DNA of 64,000 nt from Candidatus Rokuibacteriota bacterium. GTDB taxonomy: Bacteria; Methylomirabilota; Methylomirabilia; Rokubacteriales; CSP1-6. The position numbers were made by a program, and so were the translations under genes. Of this stretch, positions 36,764 to 49,756 are shown one piece after another (positions within the stretch are counted from its first letter, which is position 1; each line of letters starts with the position of its first letter). Under the pieces are notes generated by a model that ran no database searches, had not been told where the DNA came from, and was given only the letters and a program-made list of their open reading frames with translations. Location of the stretch: positions 246,863 through 310,862 of the forward strand of contig QHSU01000057.1 of the NCBI GenBank assembly GCA_003220535.1. Direction: 5' to 3'.

Positions 36764-38292
36764 CTAGAGGGCGCGCACGGCGGCACGGAGCTCGTTCAGG
36801 TGGATGGCCTTGATGACGCTGAGCCCGGTGGGATCGGTGTAAGTCGGGGCAACCTGGCCGGCCGCTTGATAGGCTTGGTTCAGGGCGGTCCGCAGCTCGG
36901 TCAAGTGAACGCCTCTGACCCAGGTGCCCCCAACCGCGAGCGTGGGATCGGTCCAGGCAAAGGGCGCCAGCCCGCGTGCGACGCGAACGCTATCGATGGC
37001 CGCCCGAAGCTCCATGACGTGCACCACCTTGATGGGCGTGCTCTGTGCGGCGAGCGGATCGTCGGTGAACGTGAGGGTGGCCGAGAGCGTCACTGTGACG
37101 CTGGCCGTGGCGGTGTTGGCGGCGGCGTCGCGCGCGGTGACCGTCAGCACGTTGGTGCCGGGCTCGAGGACGATCCCGCTGGCCGTCCAGCTGGTCGTCC
37201 CGGTCGCCGTTCCGCTGCCGCCCCGATTGTTGGCCCACGTCACCTGAGTCACCCCGACGTTGTCGGCCGCGGTCCCGCCGAGTGTCAGGGAGGAGCTGCT
37301 CGTTGTGTAGGTCGGATTGGAGGTGGGCGAGGTAATGGTCGCGGTGGGCGGCGTCAGATCGAGATTGCTGACGGTCACCGCGACGGCGGCCGACGTCGTG
37401 ATGTTTCCGGCGGCGTCATAGGCGCGGGCGGTGAGACTGTGGGAGCCATTGCTCACGCTGGTGGTCGACCACGGGTAGGTGAAGGCGGGCGGGGCCAGGG
37501 CGGCGATGAGCTGGCCGTCCCGCGTCACTCGTATCGATTACCACCACGCCCGACACCGTCTGCCCGGTGGTCGGTGAGGAGATGGTCACGGTCGGCGGCG
37601 TCGTGTCCTCAGCCGGCTCCGTTGGGGAAACCACACCCGCCGTCGCCGCCTCGAGGGCGTCGATGTCGGCGCCGATATCGGTGCCATCGGTGGCCGCGTT
37701 CTTGTATGGACTGGACGAGGCCAGGCGGTAGTTGCGCTGGCGAGATCGACGAAGCCCACAGCGGCGAGCGAGGGGGGGAAATAATTCTCCGGCGGGTAGA
37801 TCAGCGCGCCGGCCAGGGGGTTGACCTCGATGCCGATGAACCGAAAGTGGTGAGCCTGCGCGGCCGTCTGGATGGCTCCACCCACGCCCGTCCCGACGAC
37901 GAGCTTCGGCATGACGGCGGCATACGAGGGACTCACTCGGTTCCTGGGGGCGGGAGGCTGCTGTCGGGGGCGCTGGTCCGGACCGTGATCCAGCCCAGTC
38001 CGGCCTTATTGGGCAGCGTGAACGGGCCGCGGAAGGTCGCCCCCGCCTGTAGCGTGATCACATCGCCCGGTTGCGCGGCATTGAGCGCGGCCTGGAGATC
38101 CCCTCCCGCCGGCACGATGATGGTCTGGCCCGACGGTGGCACGAGCGTGGTGTCGAGAAATGCGCGCGGGAGCTCGGGAGGTTGCGCCTCGGAACTCGCG
38201 ACCATCGCCGTAGGCAGGAGCAGCAGACCAATCGCGATTCCGCCAACAGGGAGAAGAACGAGCGCGCGGCGAACGCTCGCTCCCGAGTGCAT
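36764..38292 (-). pseudogene. Disrupted secreted protein gene (beta-helix-type N-terminus, Ig-like domains, C-terminal triple-repeat domain)
   Basis: Signal peptide from 38292; frame breaks near 37940, 37740 and 37530; the central beta-helix present in the 38773-40509 paralogue is missing. Confidence 0.82.
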
Positions 38293-38345: not shown

Positions 38346-38419
38346 CCCTCCCTCGGTAGCGCGGCCGTCAGATGCGTGCGGCCCGTCTCACGACGGGGGT
38401 GTGCCCTTACCTGGGAGGG
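38346..38419 (-). ncRNA. Degenerate c-di-GMP-I (GEMM-I) riboswitch copy
   Basis: UAAGGGCACACC, P2 CCCGUC-GUGA-GACGGG and CUACCGA retained; the GCAAAGCCACGGGCC segment of the intact copy is lost. Confidence 0.65.
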
Positions 38420-38444
38420 TCTTTTCCTCTGGAAGACTAAGGGA

Positions 38445-38462
38445 TTGCACGGGGGGTGCCAA
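38445..38462 (-). promoter_or_regulatory. Sigma-54 -24/-12 promoter
   Basis: Minus strand TTGGCACCCCCCGTGCAA (GG-N10-GC), identical in the second copy. Confidence 0.78.
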
Positions 38463-38560
38463 GGAACGATCACGACGGGTCAGGCGCATCAAGATCTGGA
38501 AATCGCAGGAGCTTGAGCGGCTGTGTGGGAATCCGATCGGCGTATCTATGCTGAACGGCT

Positions 38561-38581
38561 ACGTGACACAAAGTGTCACGT
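38561..38581. promoter_or_regulatory. Palindromic candidate enhancer (bEBP binding site)
   Basis: Perfect inverted repeat ACGTGACAC-AAA-GTGTCACGT about 100 bp upstream of the sigma-54 motif. Confidence 0.62.
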
Positions 38582-38772
38582 TTCACAGTAATGTGCGCTT
38601 TCTGATATCTCTGCTTCGGGCGTCTTCCCGCAAGTCCCGGAGATGCTGAAGACGATCAACGCGATCGTCGAGCTCGACAAGGCGGCGAAGGCGGCCCCGA
38701 AGGCACCGTAGTGGGGACGTACGACGCCTTCGGCCGGTGGGAGCGTCGCGGCAGTGATCGCAGCGGTCGCCT

Positions 38773-40509
38773 CTATTCTTGCCAGCTGAAGGACAGCGTC
38801 AACCCGAAGGGAGCTGCCGGCGCCGCGGCCGGGCTGCAGACGCCCGAGATCGTGCAGGCTTGCCGGGCGTTCAGCGTATCGACGTTCACGCCGATGTCCG
38901 TCCCATCCGTCGCGAGGTTGCGATAGATCGACGTGGCAGCGAGATGGTAGTCCCCCGCCGCGAAGTTCACGAACCCCACAGCCAAGACCGTGACAGGGAA
39001 GAAGTTGTTGGCGGGATAGCTCAGGGAGCTTCCTCCGATCATCAGGTTGCGCGTGAACGGCGCCGCGGCGAAGCGCCCGTTCAGGGTTGGCGTGCCCTCG
39101 CCGAAGGACCCGGACACGAGTCCGAAGCTGCCGCGCTGGAAGATATTATTCTGGAACGTATTCGCCCCAGGCTCGAAGACCTGGTTCGTACTATCCTGCG
39201 CGTTGATGGGCGCCATGTTGGAGAACACGGTGTTGTGGTTGAAGACCATCTCTTGGGCGCTGTTGGGTTCGGGTGAGCCCGGGGAGTAGCTCGCGAAGGT
39301 CCAGGCGTTGCCGAGCCCACCCCAGGTCACCGAGTTGATGTCGTCGAAGAGGTTATTCTCAAAGAGGCCCCGCGCCATGTTGGACGAGGCGTTCGGGTCG
39401 TCATGCACGAGGAACTGGATGCCCGTTCCGCCGCTCTTGACGATGTTGTTCCGAAAGGTGATGTCTTGGACCCGCGATCCCGGATCAGTGCCGTTCTGGT
39501 TTCGGACGTTCAAGCGGATCAGTTGGCCCCCGTCCCCATTCGCGGGCACCCACGCGGTCTCGAAGCGGTTCCCCTCGATCAAGACGCGGGCCATGTTCTT
39601 CAGCTCGAAAGTTGTTTTCGCGACGACGCTCGTGCCGCGCCACCGGGCGGCATCCTTCGGGACGTAGTTATTGCGGAAGTCCAGGTCGGCCGGCCGGAGC
39701 GCGGCAGCGCTGGCGTCCGAGCCGCCGAACAGCACATTGATCGCCGCCGCCTGGATGAAGTTATTGACGATCTTGAAGGGGCCCGATCCATTCCACGCGA
39801 TCACGCCCTTGGACTCCCCGTCATCCCCCGAGAGGATTTGGTTCGGAGCGGCTTTCATGTCGTCCACGTAGGAGTCCAGCAGCGCGATCTTCGCACCATT
39901 CATCTGCACGCCGAACTTGAGCCCCGCCGAGAGCGCGGTCGAGAACGAATGCAGATACACACGGTCGAGCACGATGTTCGTCGCCAGCTGGCCGACGGTC
40001 GTCTCGGCGCCGCTGCCGATTCGGATCAGGGTGGCGTGCGGGGAGCCATTCGAGATGGTCACTTCGAGGCCGACGAGCCGCCACTGGCGGGCGCCGGCCA
40101 GGATGTCGATGATTGGGGTAAAACTCGCTCCCGTCCCCGGCCCCTGGATCTTCGGCATGTTCGTGGCGTTCGCAGGCCCGACGCGTGTCCCGGCGGCTGG
40201 CAGGGACGCAAGGGCGCTGCTCCGGATGATGATCCAGCCCGTCCCAGCCGCCCGCGCGGGGATCGTGAGAGCCCCGGTGAACGCGCTGCCCGCCTGGACG
40301 ACGATCTCGTGGTTCAGGTTCGGGTTCGCCACGGCCGCGGCGTTGATCGCCGTTTGGATGCTGCCCCCCGCATTGACGGGGAAGGTCGATCCGGTAACCG
40401 CTGGAAGCGTGGTGTCGAAAGTGGTCGGAGGTGTTTGTGCCGAAGCGGGGGCGTGGACCCAGAGAAGCAGTCCGACGGTGACGGCGAACAGCCGGAACGC
40501 CGTCCTCAT
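38773..40509 (-). CDS. Secreted right-handed parallel beta-helix (pectin-lyase-fold-like) protein
   Basis: Signal peptide MRTAF...ASAQ; Asn-rich repeats (IVNNFI, FRNNYV, IEGNRF, FRNNIV, FENNLF, FNHNTV, FQNNIF); C-terminal DYHL...DGTDIG. Confidence 0.8.
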   Translation of the reverse strand: MRTAFRLFAVTVGLLLWVHAPASAQTPPTTFDTTLPAVTGSTFPVNAGGSIQTAINAAAVANPNLNHEIVVQAGSAFTGALTIPARAAGTGWIIIRSSALASLPAAGTRVGPANATNMPKIQGPGTGASFTPIIDILAGARQWRLVGLEVTISNGSPHATLIRIGSGAETTVGQLATNIVLDRVYLHSFSTALSAGLKFGVQMNGAKIALLDSYVDDMKAAPNQILSGDDGESKGVIAWNGSGPFKIVNNFIQAAAINVLFGGSDASAAALRPADLDFRNNYVPKDAARWRGTSVVAKTTFELKNMARVLIEGNRFETAWVPANGDGGQLIRLNVRNQNGTDPGSRVQDITFRNNIVKSGGTGIQFLVHDDPNASSNMARGLFENNLFDDINSVTWGGLGNAWTFASYSPGSPEPNSAQEMVFNHNTVFSNMAPINAQDSTNQVFEPGANTFQNNIFQRGSFGLVSGSFGEGTPTLNGRFAAAPFTRNLMIGGSSLSYPANNFFPVTVLAVGFVNFAAGDYHLAATSIYRNLATDGTDIGVNVDTLNARQACTISGVCSPAAAPAAPFGLTLSFSWQE

Positions 40510-40796
40510 CAGCCGCTCGCTTGCGCGGGCGGGCGCGGCGTCGATGCGCCGGCCGCAGACAGGATCTCGATGCCGTTGAACCGGAAATGATGGGCCCCTG
40601 AGGCGGTCTGGATTGCCGATCCCACGCTTGGGCCGGCGACGAGCTTCGGCATGACGGCGGCGTACGAGAGGGTTGCGCGCGTACCCGGCGAGGGGAGGCT
40701 GCTGTCGGGGGCGCTGGTGCGGACGGTGATCCGGCGCCCGCCAACGGGGAGAAGAACGAGCGCGTGACGTACGCTCGAACCCGCTCCTGAAAACAT
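40509..40796 (-). pseudogene. 95-codon internally deleted remnant of a paralogue of the 38292 gene
   Basis: Matches the 38292 gene (VRxALVLLPVGG, ITVRTSAPDSSLP, HHFRF) but lacks about 250 bp; its stop overlaps the next ATG (TGATG). Confidence 0.78.
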
Positions 40797-40843
40797 CCTG
40801 GTCTCCCTTCGCGGAAGACCCGGTGTTCCCGGGGACGAGCGCG

Positions 40844-40933
40844 CCCTCCTTCGGTAGCCCGGCCGTCAGGCGCCTTGCCTGGCCCGTGGCTTTGCAGCCC
40901 CGTCTCACGACGGGTGTGCCCTTATCGGGAGGG
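40844..40933 (-). ncRNA. Cyclic di-GMP-I (GEMM-I) riboswitch
   Basis: Minus strand CCCUCCCGAUAAGGGCACACCCGUC-GUGA-GACGGGGCUGCAAAGCCACGGGCC...GACGGCCGGGCUACCGAAGGAGGG: P1, GNRA-capped P2, GCAAAG junction, P3 and UACCG 3' end. Confidence 0.85.
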
Positions 40934-40957
40934 TCTTCCCTCTGAAAGACCAAGGAT

Positions 40958-40975
40958 TTGCACGGGGGGTGCCAA
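40958..40975 (-). promoter_or_regulatory. Sigma-54 -24/-12 promoter
   Basis: TTGGCACCCCCCGTGCAA; predicted +1 near 40948, just 5' of the riboswitch. Confidence 0.8.
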
Positions 40976-41065
40976 GGAGCGATCACGACATGTCAGGCGC
41001 ACCAAGATCTGGAAATCGCAGGGGCTTGAGCGGCTGCGTGGAATCCGATCGGCATATCGGGGCGA

Positions 41066-41082
41066 GTAACACGCAGTGTCAC
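41066..41082. promoter_or_regulatory. Second copy of the candidate enhancer palindrome
   Basis: GTAACAC-GCA-GTGTCAC at the position equivalent to 38563-38579. Confidence 0.55.
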
Positions 41083-41189
41083 ATTCGACCTCCATATGTG
41101 CTTTCTGGCACCTCTAGTTCGCGATGGGTCGCCAGCGTTGCCGAGTCCCTTGATCTGAGCCCCGACTTCGTTTCTTCCCGGGCGGTTGT

Positions 41190-41520
41190 GAACTTGACTC
41201 CGACGTCGGCGCCGTCGAGTTCGAAGTGGCCCCCGACGACGCCGACGTTGTCAGCCCGGTTTCCCTTCTACGGCGCGATTGGCGTGTTCATATCGGTCTG
41301 GACCTCCGTCTGCGCGAGGGCACGGGTGTAGACCCGCATCTCGTCGATTCGCCCGCCGAAGAAGTCGTAATTCGCGGATCCCATGGTCCACGCGCCGGCG
41401 GAGAGTTCCAATGACGGCACCGAGCGAACCGACTTGCGGTGTGCCGCTGGGGGCTCCGTCGACAAGGACGCGAAGGGTCGAGCCGTCCGAAACGATGGCC
41501 ACATGGTGCCACGCCGGCCG
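41190..41520 (-). pseudogene. Remnants of a LamG/concanavalin-like domain and an Ig-like domain
   Basis: WHHVAIVSDGSTLRVLVDG, then after a frameshift FFGGRIDEMRVYTRALAQTEVQTDMNTPI; separate DNVGVVGGHFELDG fragment at about 41200-41252; no start. Confidence 0.7.
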
Positions 41521-41818
41521 CCGCAGCGCCCACGAAGTGCTCAGAGGCATGATGTACCTGAGCCCCCGCGTCTCGCGCACGCTGGTCCAGGCGTACCTGG
41601 CGAAGTCGGAGCTTCCGCCCGACCCGCTGACGCCGCGCGAGCGCGAAGTCCTGTAGCTCGTCGCGGAAGGCAAGACCACGAAGGAGGTCGCCGAGGCCCT
41701 GGGGATCAGCGTTAAGACCGCCGAGTCCCACCGGGCGCACATCTTGAGGAAGCTCGACACGCCGAACATCGCGGGCATCGTCCGGTACGCGATCCGCCGG
41801 GGCCTGGTCAAGATCTGA
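41521..41818 (+). pseudogene. NarL/LuxR-type response regulator, C-terminal fragment with an internal stop
   Basis: YLSPRVS...LTPREREVL*LVAEGKTTKEVAEALGISVKTAESHR; TAG at 41654-41656; receiver domain absent. Confidence 0.85.
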
Positions 41819-47698: not shown

Positions 47699-49756
47699 CT
47701 ACGAGCCGGGACGGAGCTGTCGCAGGGCCGCGTGCGGGAGCGCGCGGATGAGCTCTTCGAGGTTCGTCCGACCCTGACGGAGCTTCTCGGCGACGTCGTC
47801 CGCCATCGGTAGGGTCGTCTTCTCCGCGCTCTTCCGGATCTCCTCGAACGTCGCGCCCCGGTTGATCAGCATCACGTCCGCGTCGTTGGGGGACCAGAGC
47901 TCGGCGAGAATCATCCGACCGCGGTACCCGGTGTAGTTGCAGCCACTGCACCCCGGGCCCCGGTACCACTGGAAGTCGGCCGACGGCAGCCCGGGCAGCT
48001 CGGCCAGGAGCTCATCGGGCGGCAGGTAGGGCTCTCGACACTCCATGCACACTTCCCGCACCAGACGCTGCGCGAGCACACCCAGCAGCGACGACGCGAT
48101 GAGGTTCGAATCGACGCCGAGGTCGACCAGCCGCGGCAGCGCGCTGATCGCGTCGTTCGTGTGGAGCGTGCTGAGCACGAGGTGGCCGGTCTGGGCCGCG
48201 CGGAACGCGAGGTCCGCTGTCTCGCTGTCCCGGATCTCGCCGACCATGATCACGTCCGGGTCGTGCCGCAGGAAGGAGCGCAGGTACTTGGCGAACGTGT
48301 TCCCGAGGCGCTCGTCGACCTCGTGCTGACGGAAGACGTCGCAGACGTACTCGATCGGGTTCTCGGCGGTGAGGATCTTGATCCCGGGCTGGTACACGCT
48401 CTTGAGCGCGCCGAAGAGGGTCGTGCTCTTCCCGGAGCCGGTGGGGCCCGTGACCAGAATGATCCCAGTGGACGATCGGAGGAGCTGGCGCAGCTTCGCG
48501 GCGACGGGCTCACGCAAGCCCAGCGCCTCCACGGACTGCGGCAAGCCGCGCGGGTCGAGAATGCGGATGACGGCGCTCTCACCGTAGTAGCTGGGAATGA
48601 GCGAGATGCGGAAATCCACCGTGGTGGTCTGACCGTCTCGCTCCAGACGCGCGCGGAAGCTTCCGTCCTGAGGACGCCGCCGCTCCGCGATGTCGAGCTT
48701 GCTCAAGATCTTGAGTCGCGACATCAGCTTGCCCCGGTGCTGATTCACCAGCTCGTCGAGGTCGGCGAGCTCGAGCTCCTGCAACACGCCGTCGATGCGG
48801 AACCGTGTCTGGATCCGACGATCGACCGCTTCGAGATGAATGTCGGAGGCGCCCTGCTCGACGGCCAGGCTCAGGAGCCGACGGACCATCCCGGCCGTGC
48901 CCTCGGTCTCGCGCTGGACATCGAGGTAGGTCGATCGCTCGTCCGAGAGCCGGTCGAGCTCCTCGAAGGTCATGATGTGCGGCTCACCCGCGATCATGAA
49001 CGGCACCCGTCCGTTAGGCTCCGGCGCGGGCGCGTCCGAGCCCGACGCCGCGAGACTGGGATACATCTGCCCGAGCGCCCGGCGGATGCTAGCCGTCGTG
49101 GACGTGATCACTTCGATCTCGAGCCCCGTGCTCGACTTGAGATCGTCGACGACCGCCGTGCGCGTCGGATCGTCCATCGCCACGACCAGGGTCTGGCCGA
49201 CCCGCGCGATCGGGACGACGAGCCGCTTCTTGGCGAACCGCGGATTGATCAGGGCTTTCAGCGATCGGTCCAGGACGATCGTGTCGAGGTCGAAGAAATT
49301 GATGTGGAGCTGGAGACATAACGCGCGCCGCATCTGCTCTTCGGTGACGAACTTCAGCCGGATGACGACTTCGCCAAGCGACTGCTTCCAGCGCCGCTGC
49401 TCGGAGAGCGCCGTCGCCAGCTGGTCGGCGGTGAGCGCATTCGTCTTGACCAGGAGCTCGCCGAGCTTCGAGCGGCGCCGGTAGCGCTCGAGGACCGACA
49501 GGAGCTGGGTCCGCGTGATGACCTTCTGGGCGACCAGGATGTGGCCGAGCGGCATGTAGGTCTTCGACTGACCCTGCACGCGCAGGGCCTTCTGCACCTG
49601 GGCCTGTGTCGCGAGACCCTCGGCGACGAGCAGGTCACCAAGCCGCAGAGCGGCCGCCTGGCGGCGGGAGGTGCCGCTGCCGATAGTCAGATGCCCGGCG
49701 CTGTCCGATGGGATCAGGCGGGCCGACTCTACCTCGTCCCGAGGCTCAGAATTCAC
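47699..49756 (-). CDS. GspE/PilB family secretion ATPase with tandem N-terminal MshEN motifs
   Basis: ASDIHLE, RRPQDG, GPTGSGKST, DPDVIMVGEIRD, TGHLVLSTLHTND, CxxC...CxxC; start uncertain. Confidence 0.92.
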   Translation of the reverse strand: MNSEPRDEVESARLIPSDSAGHLTIGSGTSRRQAAALRLGDLLVAEGLATQAQVQKALRVQGQSKTYMPLGHILVAQKVITRTQLLSVLERYRRRSKLGELLVKTNALTADQLATALSEQRRWKQSLGEVVIRLKFVTEEQMRRALCLQLHINFFDLDTIVLDRSLKALINPRFAKKRLVVPIARVGQTLVVAMDDPTRTAVVDDLKSSTGLEIEVITSTTASIRRALGQMYPSLAASGSDAPAPEPNGRVPFMIAGEPHIMTFEELDRLSDERSTYLDVQRETEGTAGMVRRLLSLAVEQGASDIHLEAVDRRIQTRFRIDGVLQELELADLDELVNQHRGKLMSRLKILSKLDIAERRRPQDGSFRARLERDGQTTTVDFRISLIPSYYGESAVIRILDPRGLPQSVEALGLREPVAAKLRQLLRSSTGIILVTGPTGSGKSTTLFGALKSVYQPGIKILTAENPIEYVCDVFRQHEVDERLGNTFAKYLRSFLRHDPDVIMVGEIRDSETADLAFRAAQTGHLVLSTLHTNDAISALPRLVDLGVDSNLIASSLLGVLAQRLVREVCMECREPYLPPDELLAELPGLPSADFQWYRGPGCSGCNYTGYRGRMILAELWSPNDADVMLINRGATFEEIRKSAEKTTLPMADDVAEKLRQGRTNLEELIRALPHAALRQLRPGS

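Follow-up and report, generated by a model that had tools for sequence, protein, structure and literature searches.

Region 40794-41082, on the minus strand of a 64,000-nucleotide stretch of contig QHSU01000057.1 (positions 246,863 to 310,862; hereafter the window), probably joins a sigma-54-type promoter to a translationally acting riboswitch for cyclic di-GMP (c-di-GMP), with the control passed by translational coupling to the gene of a secreted beta-helix protein. We read the region as one copy of a regulatory cassette that recurs among related genomes; its host is an uncultured soil bacterium of the Candidatus Rokuibacteriota. In the mechanism that we propose, transcription would start in a sigma-54-dependent manner and would need an enhancer-binding activator, probably seated on a GTGACAC-N3-GTGTCAC dyad about 100 base pairs (bp) upstream, and the riboswitch in the 5′ leader would control how translation begins at ATG 40796, where the Shine-Dalgarno (SD) sequence and the start codon would be either masked or exposed. 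A sequence-only reading of the window had listed four elements here, namely a palindrome, a -24/-12 motif, a GEMM-I-like aptamer, and a hairpin over the SD, and all four were found where it had put them; where it spoke of three layers of control, we count two inputs, the sigma-54 activator and c-di-GMP. The genome that we scanned comprises 7.18 megabases (Mb) in 162 contigs (93.8% complete, 8.2% contamination). The comparison set consisted of 41 genomes, i.e., the window's own and 40 relatives, GEMM-I being present in 28 of the 41, and 33 GEMM-I copies were read with their flanks, which form the base for the motif and base counts given here. All coordinates of the cassette, the gene relic, and the beta-helix gene are read on the minus strand.

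A scan of the whole window at Rfam gathering thresholds returned a single match, RF03167 (c-di-GMP-I-GGC), at full length over 40849-40929, with a score of 63.4 bits (gathering score, 59; E = 1.3e-12). The model RF01051 (c-di-GMP-I) gave 60.3 bits at 40850-40930 (gathering score, 35). The aptamer (40930-40849) has a GUGA tetraloop, and alignment of its bases to the model consensus in Vc2 numbering (AAGG-GC, GC-AA-AGCC, and UA-C-CG) yields G20, A47, and C92. The call of a GEMM-I aptamer with G20 and C92, made from the letters alone, is thus borne out by an Rfam match above cut-off, and A47 can be added to it. A47 is a ligand-contact base. According to PMC6140456, G20 and C92 each base-pair with one of the ligand's two guanines, and the GEMM-Ib riboswitch of Geobacter, which senses 3′,3′-cyclic GMP-AMP with a homologous fold, has A20, whereas the window has G20. 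Across 15 homologous leaders, between 91.1 and 100% of the cells were paired in each aptamer helix, with four pairs changed on both sides. The window shares the three-helix aptamer, the GNRA tetraloop, and G20/A47/C92 with Vc2 of Vibrio cholerae, a riboswitch of the RF01051 type, and both stand in the 5′ leader of genes for secreted or surface proteins. It departs from that type in standing behind a sigma-54-type promoter, in having a gene relic as its immediate open reading frame (ORF), and in a platform that combines a 5′ SD mimic with a two-partner switching strand. By identity, we conclude, this is a real c-di-GMP-I riboswitch, which would be expected to respond to c-di-GMP.

The variant name of the best-scoring family, which the earlier reading had not mentioned, should not be taken literally, because the RF03167 consensus contains a conserved G between the P1b and P3 helices (GCGAAG), and at this place (model position 37) the window reads A (GCAAAG); the same A is present in all 33 copies. 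That G is presumably what defines the variant. We take "GGC" to denote positions 20, 47, and 92, in which case the window would be GAC, the canonical type. The meaning of "GGC" is left undefined in the main text of PMC5737381, and PMC12452182 merely lists the variant. Judged by its bases, the aptamer appears to be of the canonical c-di-GMP type.

Ahead of the aptamer stands TGGCAC-CCCCC-GTGCA (40974-40959), with the GG at 40973/40972 and the GC at 40961/40960. From the position of this motif, transcription is predicted to start at ~40948, in agreement with the start site first proposed. All four GEMM-I copies of this genome carry TGGCAY-N5-NTGCA 40 to 46 nucleotides (nt) before the aptamer, and the five-base spacer differs among them (TTCCG, TTCCT, CCGCA, and CCCCC) while the GG and the GC are constant. 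A looser regular expression, applied to at most 90 nt upstream, found the motif in 17 of the 33 copies. By eye, and with no scored control, five further copies showed GG-N10-GC variants (e.g., TGGCGC-N5-TTGCT); five copies read by eye, likewise with no scored control, as TGGCAY-N5-TTGWA and four as sigma-70-like. The genome has rpoN at one locus (PF04552, 205 bits) and the activator domain Sigma54_activat (PF00158) at 30 loci with at least 199 bits. Together with its retention in all four of the genome's own copies, these genes support the -24/-12 motif as a conserved promoter of the sigma-54 type, as had been claimed, with a predicted dependence on rpoN. As in sigma-54 promoters with NtrC- or FleQ-type activator sites, there is a GG-N10-GC core close to the consensus TGGCAC-N5-TTGCW and a dyad ~100 bp upstream; unlike the consensus, the -12 element reads GTGCA, not TTGCA, and the promoter feeds a riboswitch leader. 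A search for a published account of a sigma-54 promoter paired with GEMM-I found none, which does not prove absence from print.

One of this genome's copies outside the window (contig C89, 22790-25233) has two -24/-12 elements in tandem, TTAGCAC-N5-GTGCG being followed at once by TTGGCAC-N5-GTGCA. About 1 kb upstream of this copy, in divergent orientation, is a gene for a response-regulator-type sigma-54 activator; as a cognate activator by synteny it was dropped, as it was not found in the 1.5-kb flanks of the copy's relatives.

The candidate enhancer, i.e., the activator-binding site, is the palindrome GTGACAC-TGC-GTGTTAC (41082-41066), in which 13 of 14 arm positions are symmetric and whose center lies ~126 nt upstream of the predicted start. 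From composition, about one such 7-nt palindrome with at most one mismatch is expected by chance in this genome, and the palindrome on its own is not significant; its significance comes from the position of its copies. GTGACAC-N3-GTGTCAC, with at most one mismatch, occurred at three sites in the 7.18 Mb, and all three begin 108 to 121 nt upstream of TGGCAC-N5-NTGCW, so that the genome-wide scan suggested by the sequence-only reading placed every site upstream of a GG-N10-GC motif. Two of the three are the window's two cassette copies, i.e., duplicates. The third, on contig C139 (6400-7530, minus strand), had no match to the window cassette in a DNA search: there, GTGACAC-TTA-CTGTCAC is followed by TGGCAC-TGACT-TTGCT, then by a leader of ~390 nt with no GEMM-I match, and then by a paralogue of the secreted proteins that are under other riboswitches. 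The spacer was altered with the arms kept in the duplicate (TTT) and in a related genome (G016:C38, CCA), both of which are perfect palindromes. We infer that the palindrome is probably bound by an enhancer-binding activator. Between palindrome and promoter lies a conserved block, GCGATTTCCAGATCTTGG (41019-41002), nearly invariant in a four-sequence alignment (A5) and with a related block in other copies. Inspection of 41002-41019 by eye for an integration host factor site gave no convincing match, and we make no such claim.

Other riboswitch promoters carry different conserved upstream blocks. Nine loci (L002, L008, L010, L011, L012, L014, L016, L019, and L026) have a different conserved module ~100 to 200 nt before the -24 element, which consists of the near-palindrome TCTCAAATTTGAGA, then ATGTCAGAAT, then GTGAC-N6-GTGACAC. 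This suggests that other subfamilies of the cassette may answer to other activators.

The leader contains the parts of a translational expression platform. A hairpin, GGTCTTCC-GCGAA-GGGAGACC (40820-40800), carries the SD in its 3′ arm (GGGAGACC, 40808-40800) and covers AGGGAG, six bases before ATG 40796 (40796-40794). A switching strand, CCGGGAACACCGGGTCTTCC (40832-40813), which reads CCGGGAACACC-GGGTCTTCC and comprises an anti-P1 and an anti-SD arm, is separated from the aptamer by a small hairpin. In front of the aptamer, the leader element GGGAAGACCC (40940-40931) mimics the SD and is complementary to the anti-SD arm, with nine perfect pairs between GGGAAGACCC and GGGTCTTCC in the window. 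We built a covariance model from 16 homologous leaders, chosen for aligning with that of the window and mutually non-independent; alignments fitted to this model (A3 and A4), and so biased in favor of its structure, replaced a MAFFT alignment (A1) in which the leader and SD arms were misplaced. In the 15 complete leaders, the SD hairpin had 90.7% of cells paired over 10 pairs (2 changed on both sides, 6 on one side), and the whole structure was 95.7% paired, versus 30 to 45% when the partners were slid by 1 to 3 columns. The SD-masking hairpin that had been read in the window is therefore a conserved feature of its homologues. The leader element, GGGAAGACC, was complementary to the anti-SD arm in 16/16 leaders (8 to 12 bp, -12.7 to -20.3 kcal/mol), in each case ranking no higher than the lowest 3% of 500 shuffles of the leader, and compensatory changes in this pairing were present in L007 and L029. 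A further sequence around the predicted start, GGTCTTTC (40944-40953, minus strand), is complementary to GGGAAGACC and also occurs in the second cassette described below and in L007; with a transcription start a few bases upstream of the predicted one, the SD mimic would be capped by a 5′ hairpin.

The switching strand has a second set of partners. Its conserved CGGGA is complementary to the 5′ strand of P1 (UCYCG), forming C-G where a copy reads UCCCG, U-A in L006 and L008, and mostly U-G elsewhere. In all 15 complete leaders the strand thus has two partners of similar duplex energy, which in the window amount to -25.8 kcal/mol for the leader plus the P1 5′ strand and -27.4 kcal/mol for the SD/start region. 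The first pairing excludes the folded aptamer and frees the SD, and the pairing with the AUGUUY region masks it. We propose that the strand (CCGGGAACA...GGUCUUCC) would alternate accordingly: held by the leader and the P1 5′ strand, it would leave the SD free and the aptamer unfolded; held by the SD/AUG region, it would mask the SD. Because ligand binding locks P1, c-di-GMP would most likely turn translation OFF. This direction rests on architecture because the folding models left the SD masked in both states, and we favor OFF slightly, at about even chances or a little above. In ensemble calculations, enforcing the aptamer raised the cost of opening the SD in 10 of 15 leaders, left it unchanged in 2, and lowered it in 3, the difference being at least 1 kcal/mol in only 5.

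The same cassette could instead be turned ON by c-di-GMP, a possibility to which we give real weight while holding it less probable than not. Without ligand, the leader's GGGAAG would pair with the P1 5′ strand in a small 5′ hairpin, and the SD hairpin would form as well; with ligand, P1 would form, and the released leader would pair with the anti-SD arm, stacked on P1, and free the SD. Several minimum-energy folds contain the 5′ hairpin, which is just five to six pairs long, and the conserved leader/anti-SD pairing with its compensatory changes in L007 and L029 would find its use here; with an enforced aptamer and an SD kept open, this enclosing helix was the fold predicted for L012. Genes for matrix proteins and adhesins are usually induced at high c-di-GMP, and other cassettes precede immunoglobulin (Ig)- or fibronectin type III (FN3)-like secreted proteins, both of which speak for induction. 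Homologous GEMM aptamers can be ON or OFF switches (PMC9262584). An ON switch, however, leaves the conserved CGGGA, with its complementarity to the P1 5′ strand, unexplained, and the enforced aptamer made the SD cheaper to open in just the 3 of 15 leaders noted above.

The ORF that starts at ATG 40796 is not the beta-helix gene, for which the sequence-only reading had taken it; that reading was right in kind and wrong about this gene as it was about the number of layers. The start codon, at a position equivalent to the start codons of other cassettes, opens 95 codons (40796-40509) with no signal peptide, and the stop TGA overlaps the next ATG (TGATG), which is the beta-helix gene's own start at 40509. 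The encoded peptide shares 35% identity with residues 73-156 of the next gene's product (E = 6e-7) and 64.5% with a further paralogue encoded elsewhere on the contig. Of the ancestral gene, the ORF retains the first ~20 codons, which match the N-terminus of the duplicate cassette's gene; it then continues with approximately residues 85-170 and ends soon after the GIE motif. These alignments identify the ORF as the relic of a deleted beta-helix paralogue that two deletions have cut down. In related genomes, the cassettes directly precede full-length secreted beta-helix or Ig/FN3-like proteins; full-length homologues stand behind the cassette in G005 and G007, and a match in G008 covers the N-terminal half, running to the contig end. 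The beta-helix gene has its own start and signal peptide at 40509, and any control by the riboswitch must reach it through coupling or read-through. Given the overlap of the relic's stop with that ATG, we propose that the riboswitch probably acts on the beta-helix gene via translational coupling and co-transcription. The 737-amino-acid (aa) ORF (38773-40986) in which the cassette had been said to be hidden is spurious over the 159-codon in-frame run through the riboswitch, while its remainder is the real 578-aa gene (40509-38773).

Several observations weigh against this proposal. For the activator, a search of the window's contig and of C139 found no gene. The palindrome (with at most two mismatches) was not found upstream of the genome's other three riboswitch copies, nor at most relatives' loci, and among the three exact palindromes in the 41 genomes one is next to a cold-shock gene and lacks a sigma-54 motif in its vicinity. 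Since the 16 leaders are homologous to one another, counts across them are not independent. In an equilibrium model the SD hairpin was closed with or without the aptamer, the window SD having an unpaired probability of ~0.001 and an opening cost of 12.8 to 14.5 kcal/mol; the folding models thus show no real switch, and their lean to OFF is small. A search of RNA runs for 38700-41300 returned none with this stretch. The remaining points are signs of decay. The genome's four GEMM-I copies score 75, 71.6, 69.1, and 60.3 bits, that of the window being the lowest. Its aptamer is the most deviant of the 33: it alone has C for the middle A of GCAAAC and U for the C before GCAAAG, two substitutions relative to the RF01051 type at sites invariant in the 32 other copies, and there is a C-A mismatch in P3. 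The copy before the closest intact homologue of the relic's parent (G008:C740) scores 34.7 bits, below the cut-off of 35. This cassette lineage may be decaying.

A second, decayed cassette, which the sequence-only reading had missed, lies ~2.5 kb downstream. In a DNA search, 41058-40738 matched 38546-38240 with 78% identity, and the second cassette as a whole occupies 38351-38579 (minus strand). It has a perfect palindrome, GTGACAC-TTT-GTGTCAC (38563-38579), and the identical promoter motif, TGGCAC-CCCCC-GTGCA (38446-38461). The aptamer remnant (38351-38414) has lost 19 nt, A47 and the P3 5′ strand among them, scores 13.4 bits (E = 2.1), and is dead. Behind it, a broken paralogue (37586-38292) reads as two ORFs of 119 and 116 aa, in the order N-terminal part, frameshift, large internal deletion, and C-terminal part. 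Further fragments of related genes lie at 37058-37640 and 41274-41529.

These signs raise the possibility, which we judge unlikely though not negligible (about one notch below an ON switch), that the window cassette is itself a decaying orphan: the beta-helix gene at 40509 would use its own signals, the riboswitch would regulate nothing useful, and promoter and aptamer would survive only because the deletions in the target gene are recent. The 95-codon remnant of the target, the deviant aptamer, the sister copy with its 19-nt loss and frameshifted gene, the subthreshold copy in G008, and the gene fragments that flank the locus would all fit. Against an orphan stands the integrity of the first unit despite its gutted coding sequence: the promoter is identical to that of the duplicate at 16/16 positions, the three ligand-contact bases and 9/9 leader/anti-SD pairs are present, and SD and ATG are intact. 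Moreover, the relic is open exactly to the stop that overlaps the next ATG, and by eye there is no good SD before ATG 40509. Unitigs from four further soil-metagenome studies (X3 to X6), finally, carry the same sequence with 0 differences: 40357-40870 in X3 and X4, 40550-40870 in X5, and 40471-40806 in X6, with further matches in X3 at 40846-40938 and 40909-41290. Because these unitigs reproduce the region, the arrangement of cassette and relic is not an assembly artifact. Low-depth contigs from other soil runs join ~40836-40841 straight to 40500 or 40245 and could come from relatives in which the cassette abuts the beta-helix gene without the relic; such joints (e.g., 40500-40836 in X6) have sides of 23 to 34 nt, are unreliable and possibly from other organisms, and were not used as evidence.

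Two weaker alternatives concern single elements of the cassette. TGGCAC-N5-GTGCA might be a transcribed hairpin (GCAC/GUGC) or another DNA-binding site, with transcription starting further upstream. In most copies GCAC and GTGC are indeed reverse complements, and a count of the strict motif over both strands of the 7.18 Mb gave 68 instances, modestly above the mononucleotide expectation of 43; the motif is rare in absolute terms and not strongly enriched. The copy on contig C2 (TGGCAT-CCGCA-CTGCA), however, has no self-complementarity, nor, by eye, do TGGCGC-N5-TTGCT, GGGCAC-N5-TTGCA, and TGGTTA-N5-TTGCA, while C2 and the more distant copies all keep GG-N10-GC, and the genome has rpoN and many activators. 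We therefore consider a function other than as a promoter improbable. Very improbable is that the hairpin at 40820-40800, together with AGGAUGUUUU, forms an intrinsic terminator through which the riboswitch acts on transcription: a terminator scan did flag it (8 pairs, 5 of them G-C, with AGGATGTTTT coming after and a UUUU run in the tail), but the scan gave 3 sites versus 2.6 expected from shuffles, the U run lies six bases past the stem, within codons 1-3, and is present at that place in 1 of 14 other complete related leaders (L006), and 15/15 leaders keep the SD in the 3′ arm with a start codon (GUG in L006) 6 to ~11 bases on. The earlier statement that there is no U-tract terminator accordingly stands for the family and needs qualifying for the window, whose hairpin the scan picks out.

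The gene to which the cassette's control would be passed encodes a protein of 578 aa with a signal peptide, MRTAFRLFAVTVGLLLWVHAPASA. An AlphaFold2 model, computed from 22 rows (20 of 25 loci, L015, and the query; L046 was left out for a stop codon and L055, L057, L058, and L059 by choice), was a right-handed beta-helix with a mean predicted local distance difference test score of 83.6 and a predicted template modeling (TM) score of 0.87. Foldseek matched it to GH136 lacto-N-biosidases, PL6 alginate lyases, tailspikes, pectate lyases, and RbmB, with E values of 2.7e-8 to 1e-3, identities of 9 to 13%, and TM-scores of 0.3 to 0.5; all recognized top matches were beta-helix enzymes or tailspikes. 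The signal peptide, the model, and the matches bear out the original description of the product as a secreted right-handed beta-helix protein, and its predicted fold is like that of glycan lyases and hydrolases. While the fold matches that of PL6 lyases, GH136, phage tailspikes, and RbmB of Vibrio cholerae, the protein differs from these enzymes in having no family-level sequence match: searches against Pfam and NCBIfam gave none, and a profile search gave a weak match to PL6 lyases, with the PDB profile aligned at positions 16-68 of 496 only.

If the proposal is right, the gene would fire only when the activator's signal and a particular level of c-di-GMP coincide. Riboswitches of this class and sigma-54 promoters are each well known; what would be new in practice is that the two are repeatedly hard-wired together. 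A broader reading, which we regard as speculative and would not expect to hold in full, is that of a regulon of secreted glycan-active or adhesin-like proteins, each gated by a sigma-54 activator and GEMM-I in series, in which the riboswitch platform consists of a 5′ SD mimic and a two-partner switching strand and in which, at this locus, the riboswitch has outlived its own gene, the 95-codon stump having been co-opted as a leader ORF that couples to the beta-helix gene. The locus and its relatives offer a natural series on the death and re-use of a riboswitch, with an intact cassette before an intact gene, an intact one before a stump, and a dead one before a broken gene. The palindrome supplies a concrete candidate enhancer motif for one of the ~30 orphan activators, and the gene model is corrected from a 737-aa ORF to a 578-aa secreted beta-helix protein preceded by a leader.

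As had been noted from the sequence, the neighbors include polysaccharide synthesis and export genes: those for a UDP-GlcNAc 2-epimerase, a polysaccharide deacetylase, a GNAT acetyltransferase, and a UDP-glucose dehydrogenase on one side of the locus, and Poly_export and Wzz-like genes on the other. A type II/IV secretion ATPase is encoded at 47699-49756 (minus strand; Pfam T2SSE, 373 bits, and MshEN, 61 bits). MshEN is a c-di-GMP-binding domain, which would make the ATPase a second receptor for c-di-GMP close to the polysaccharide genes. The fragment at 41274-41529 (minus strand), which is 40 to 64% identical to the C-terminal repeats of proteins flanking the C2 riboswitch copy, ends 186 nt before the palindrome, and its frame is open for only 78 codons. 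At 36764-37640 (minus strand) lies an ORF with Ig-like domains (Big_13 and Big_7), where fragments share 63% identity with the middle of the protein controlled by the riboswitch on contig C2; the ORF may be a further remnant, or else encode a short surface protein that ends the same transcription unit.

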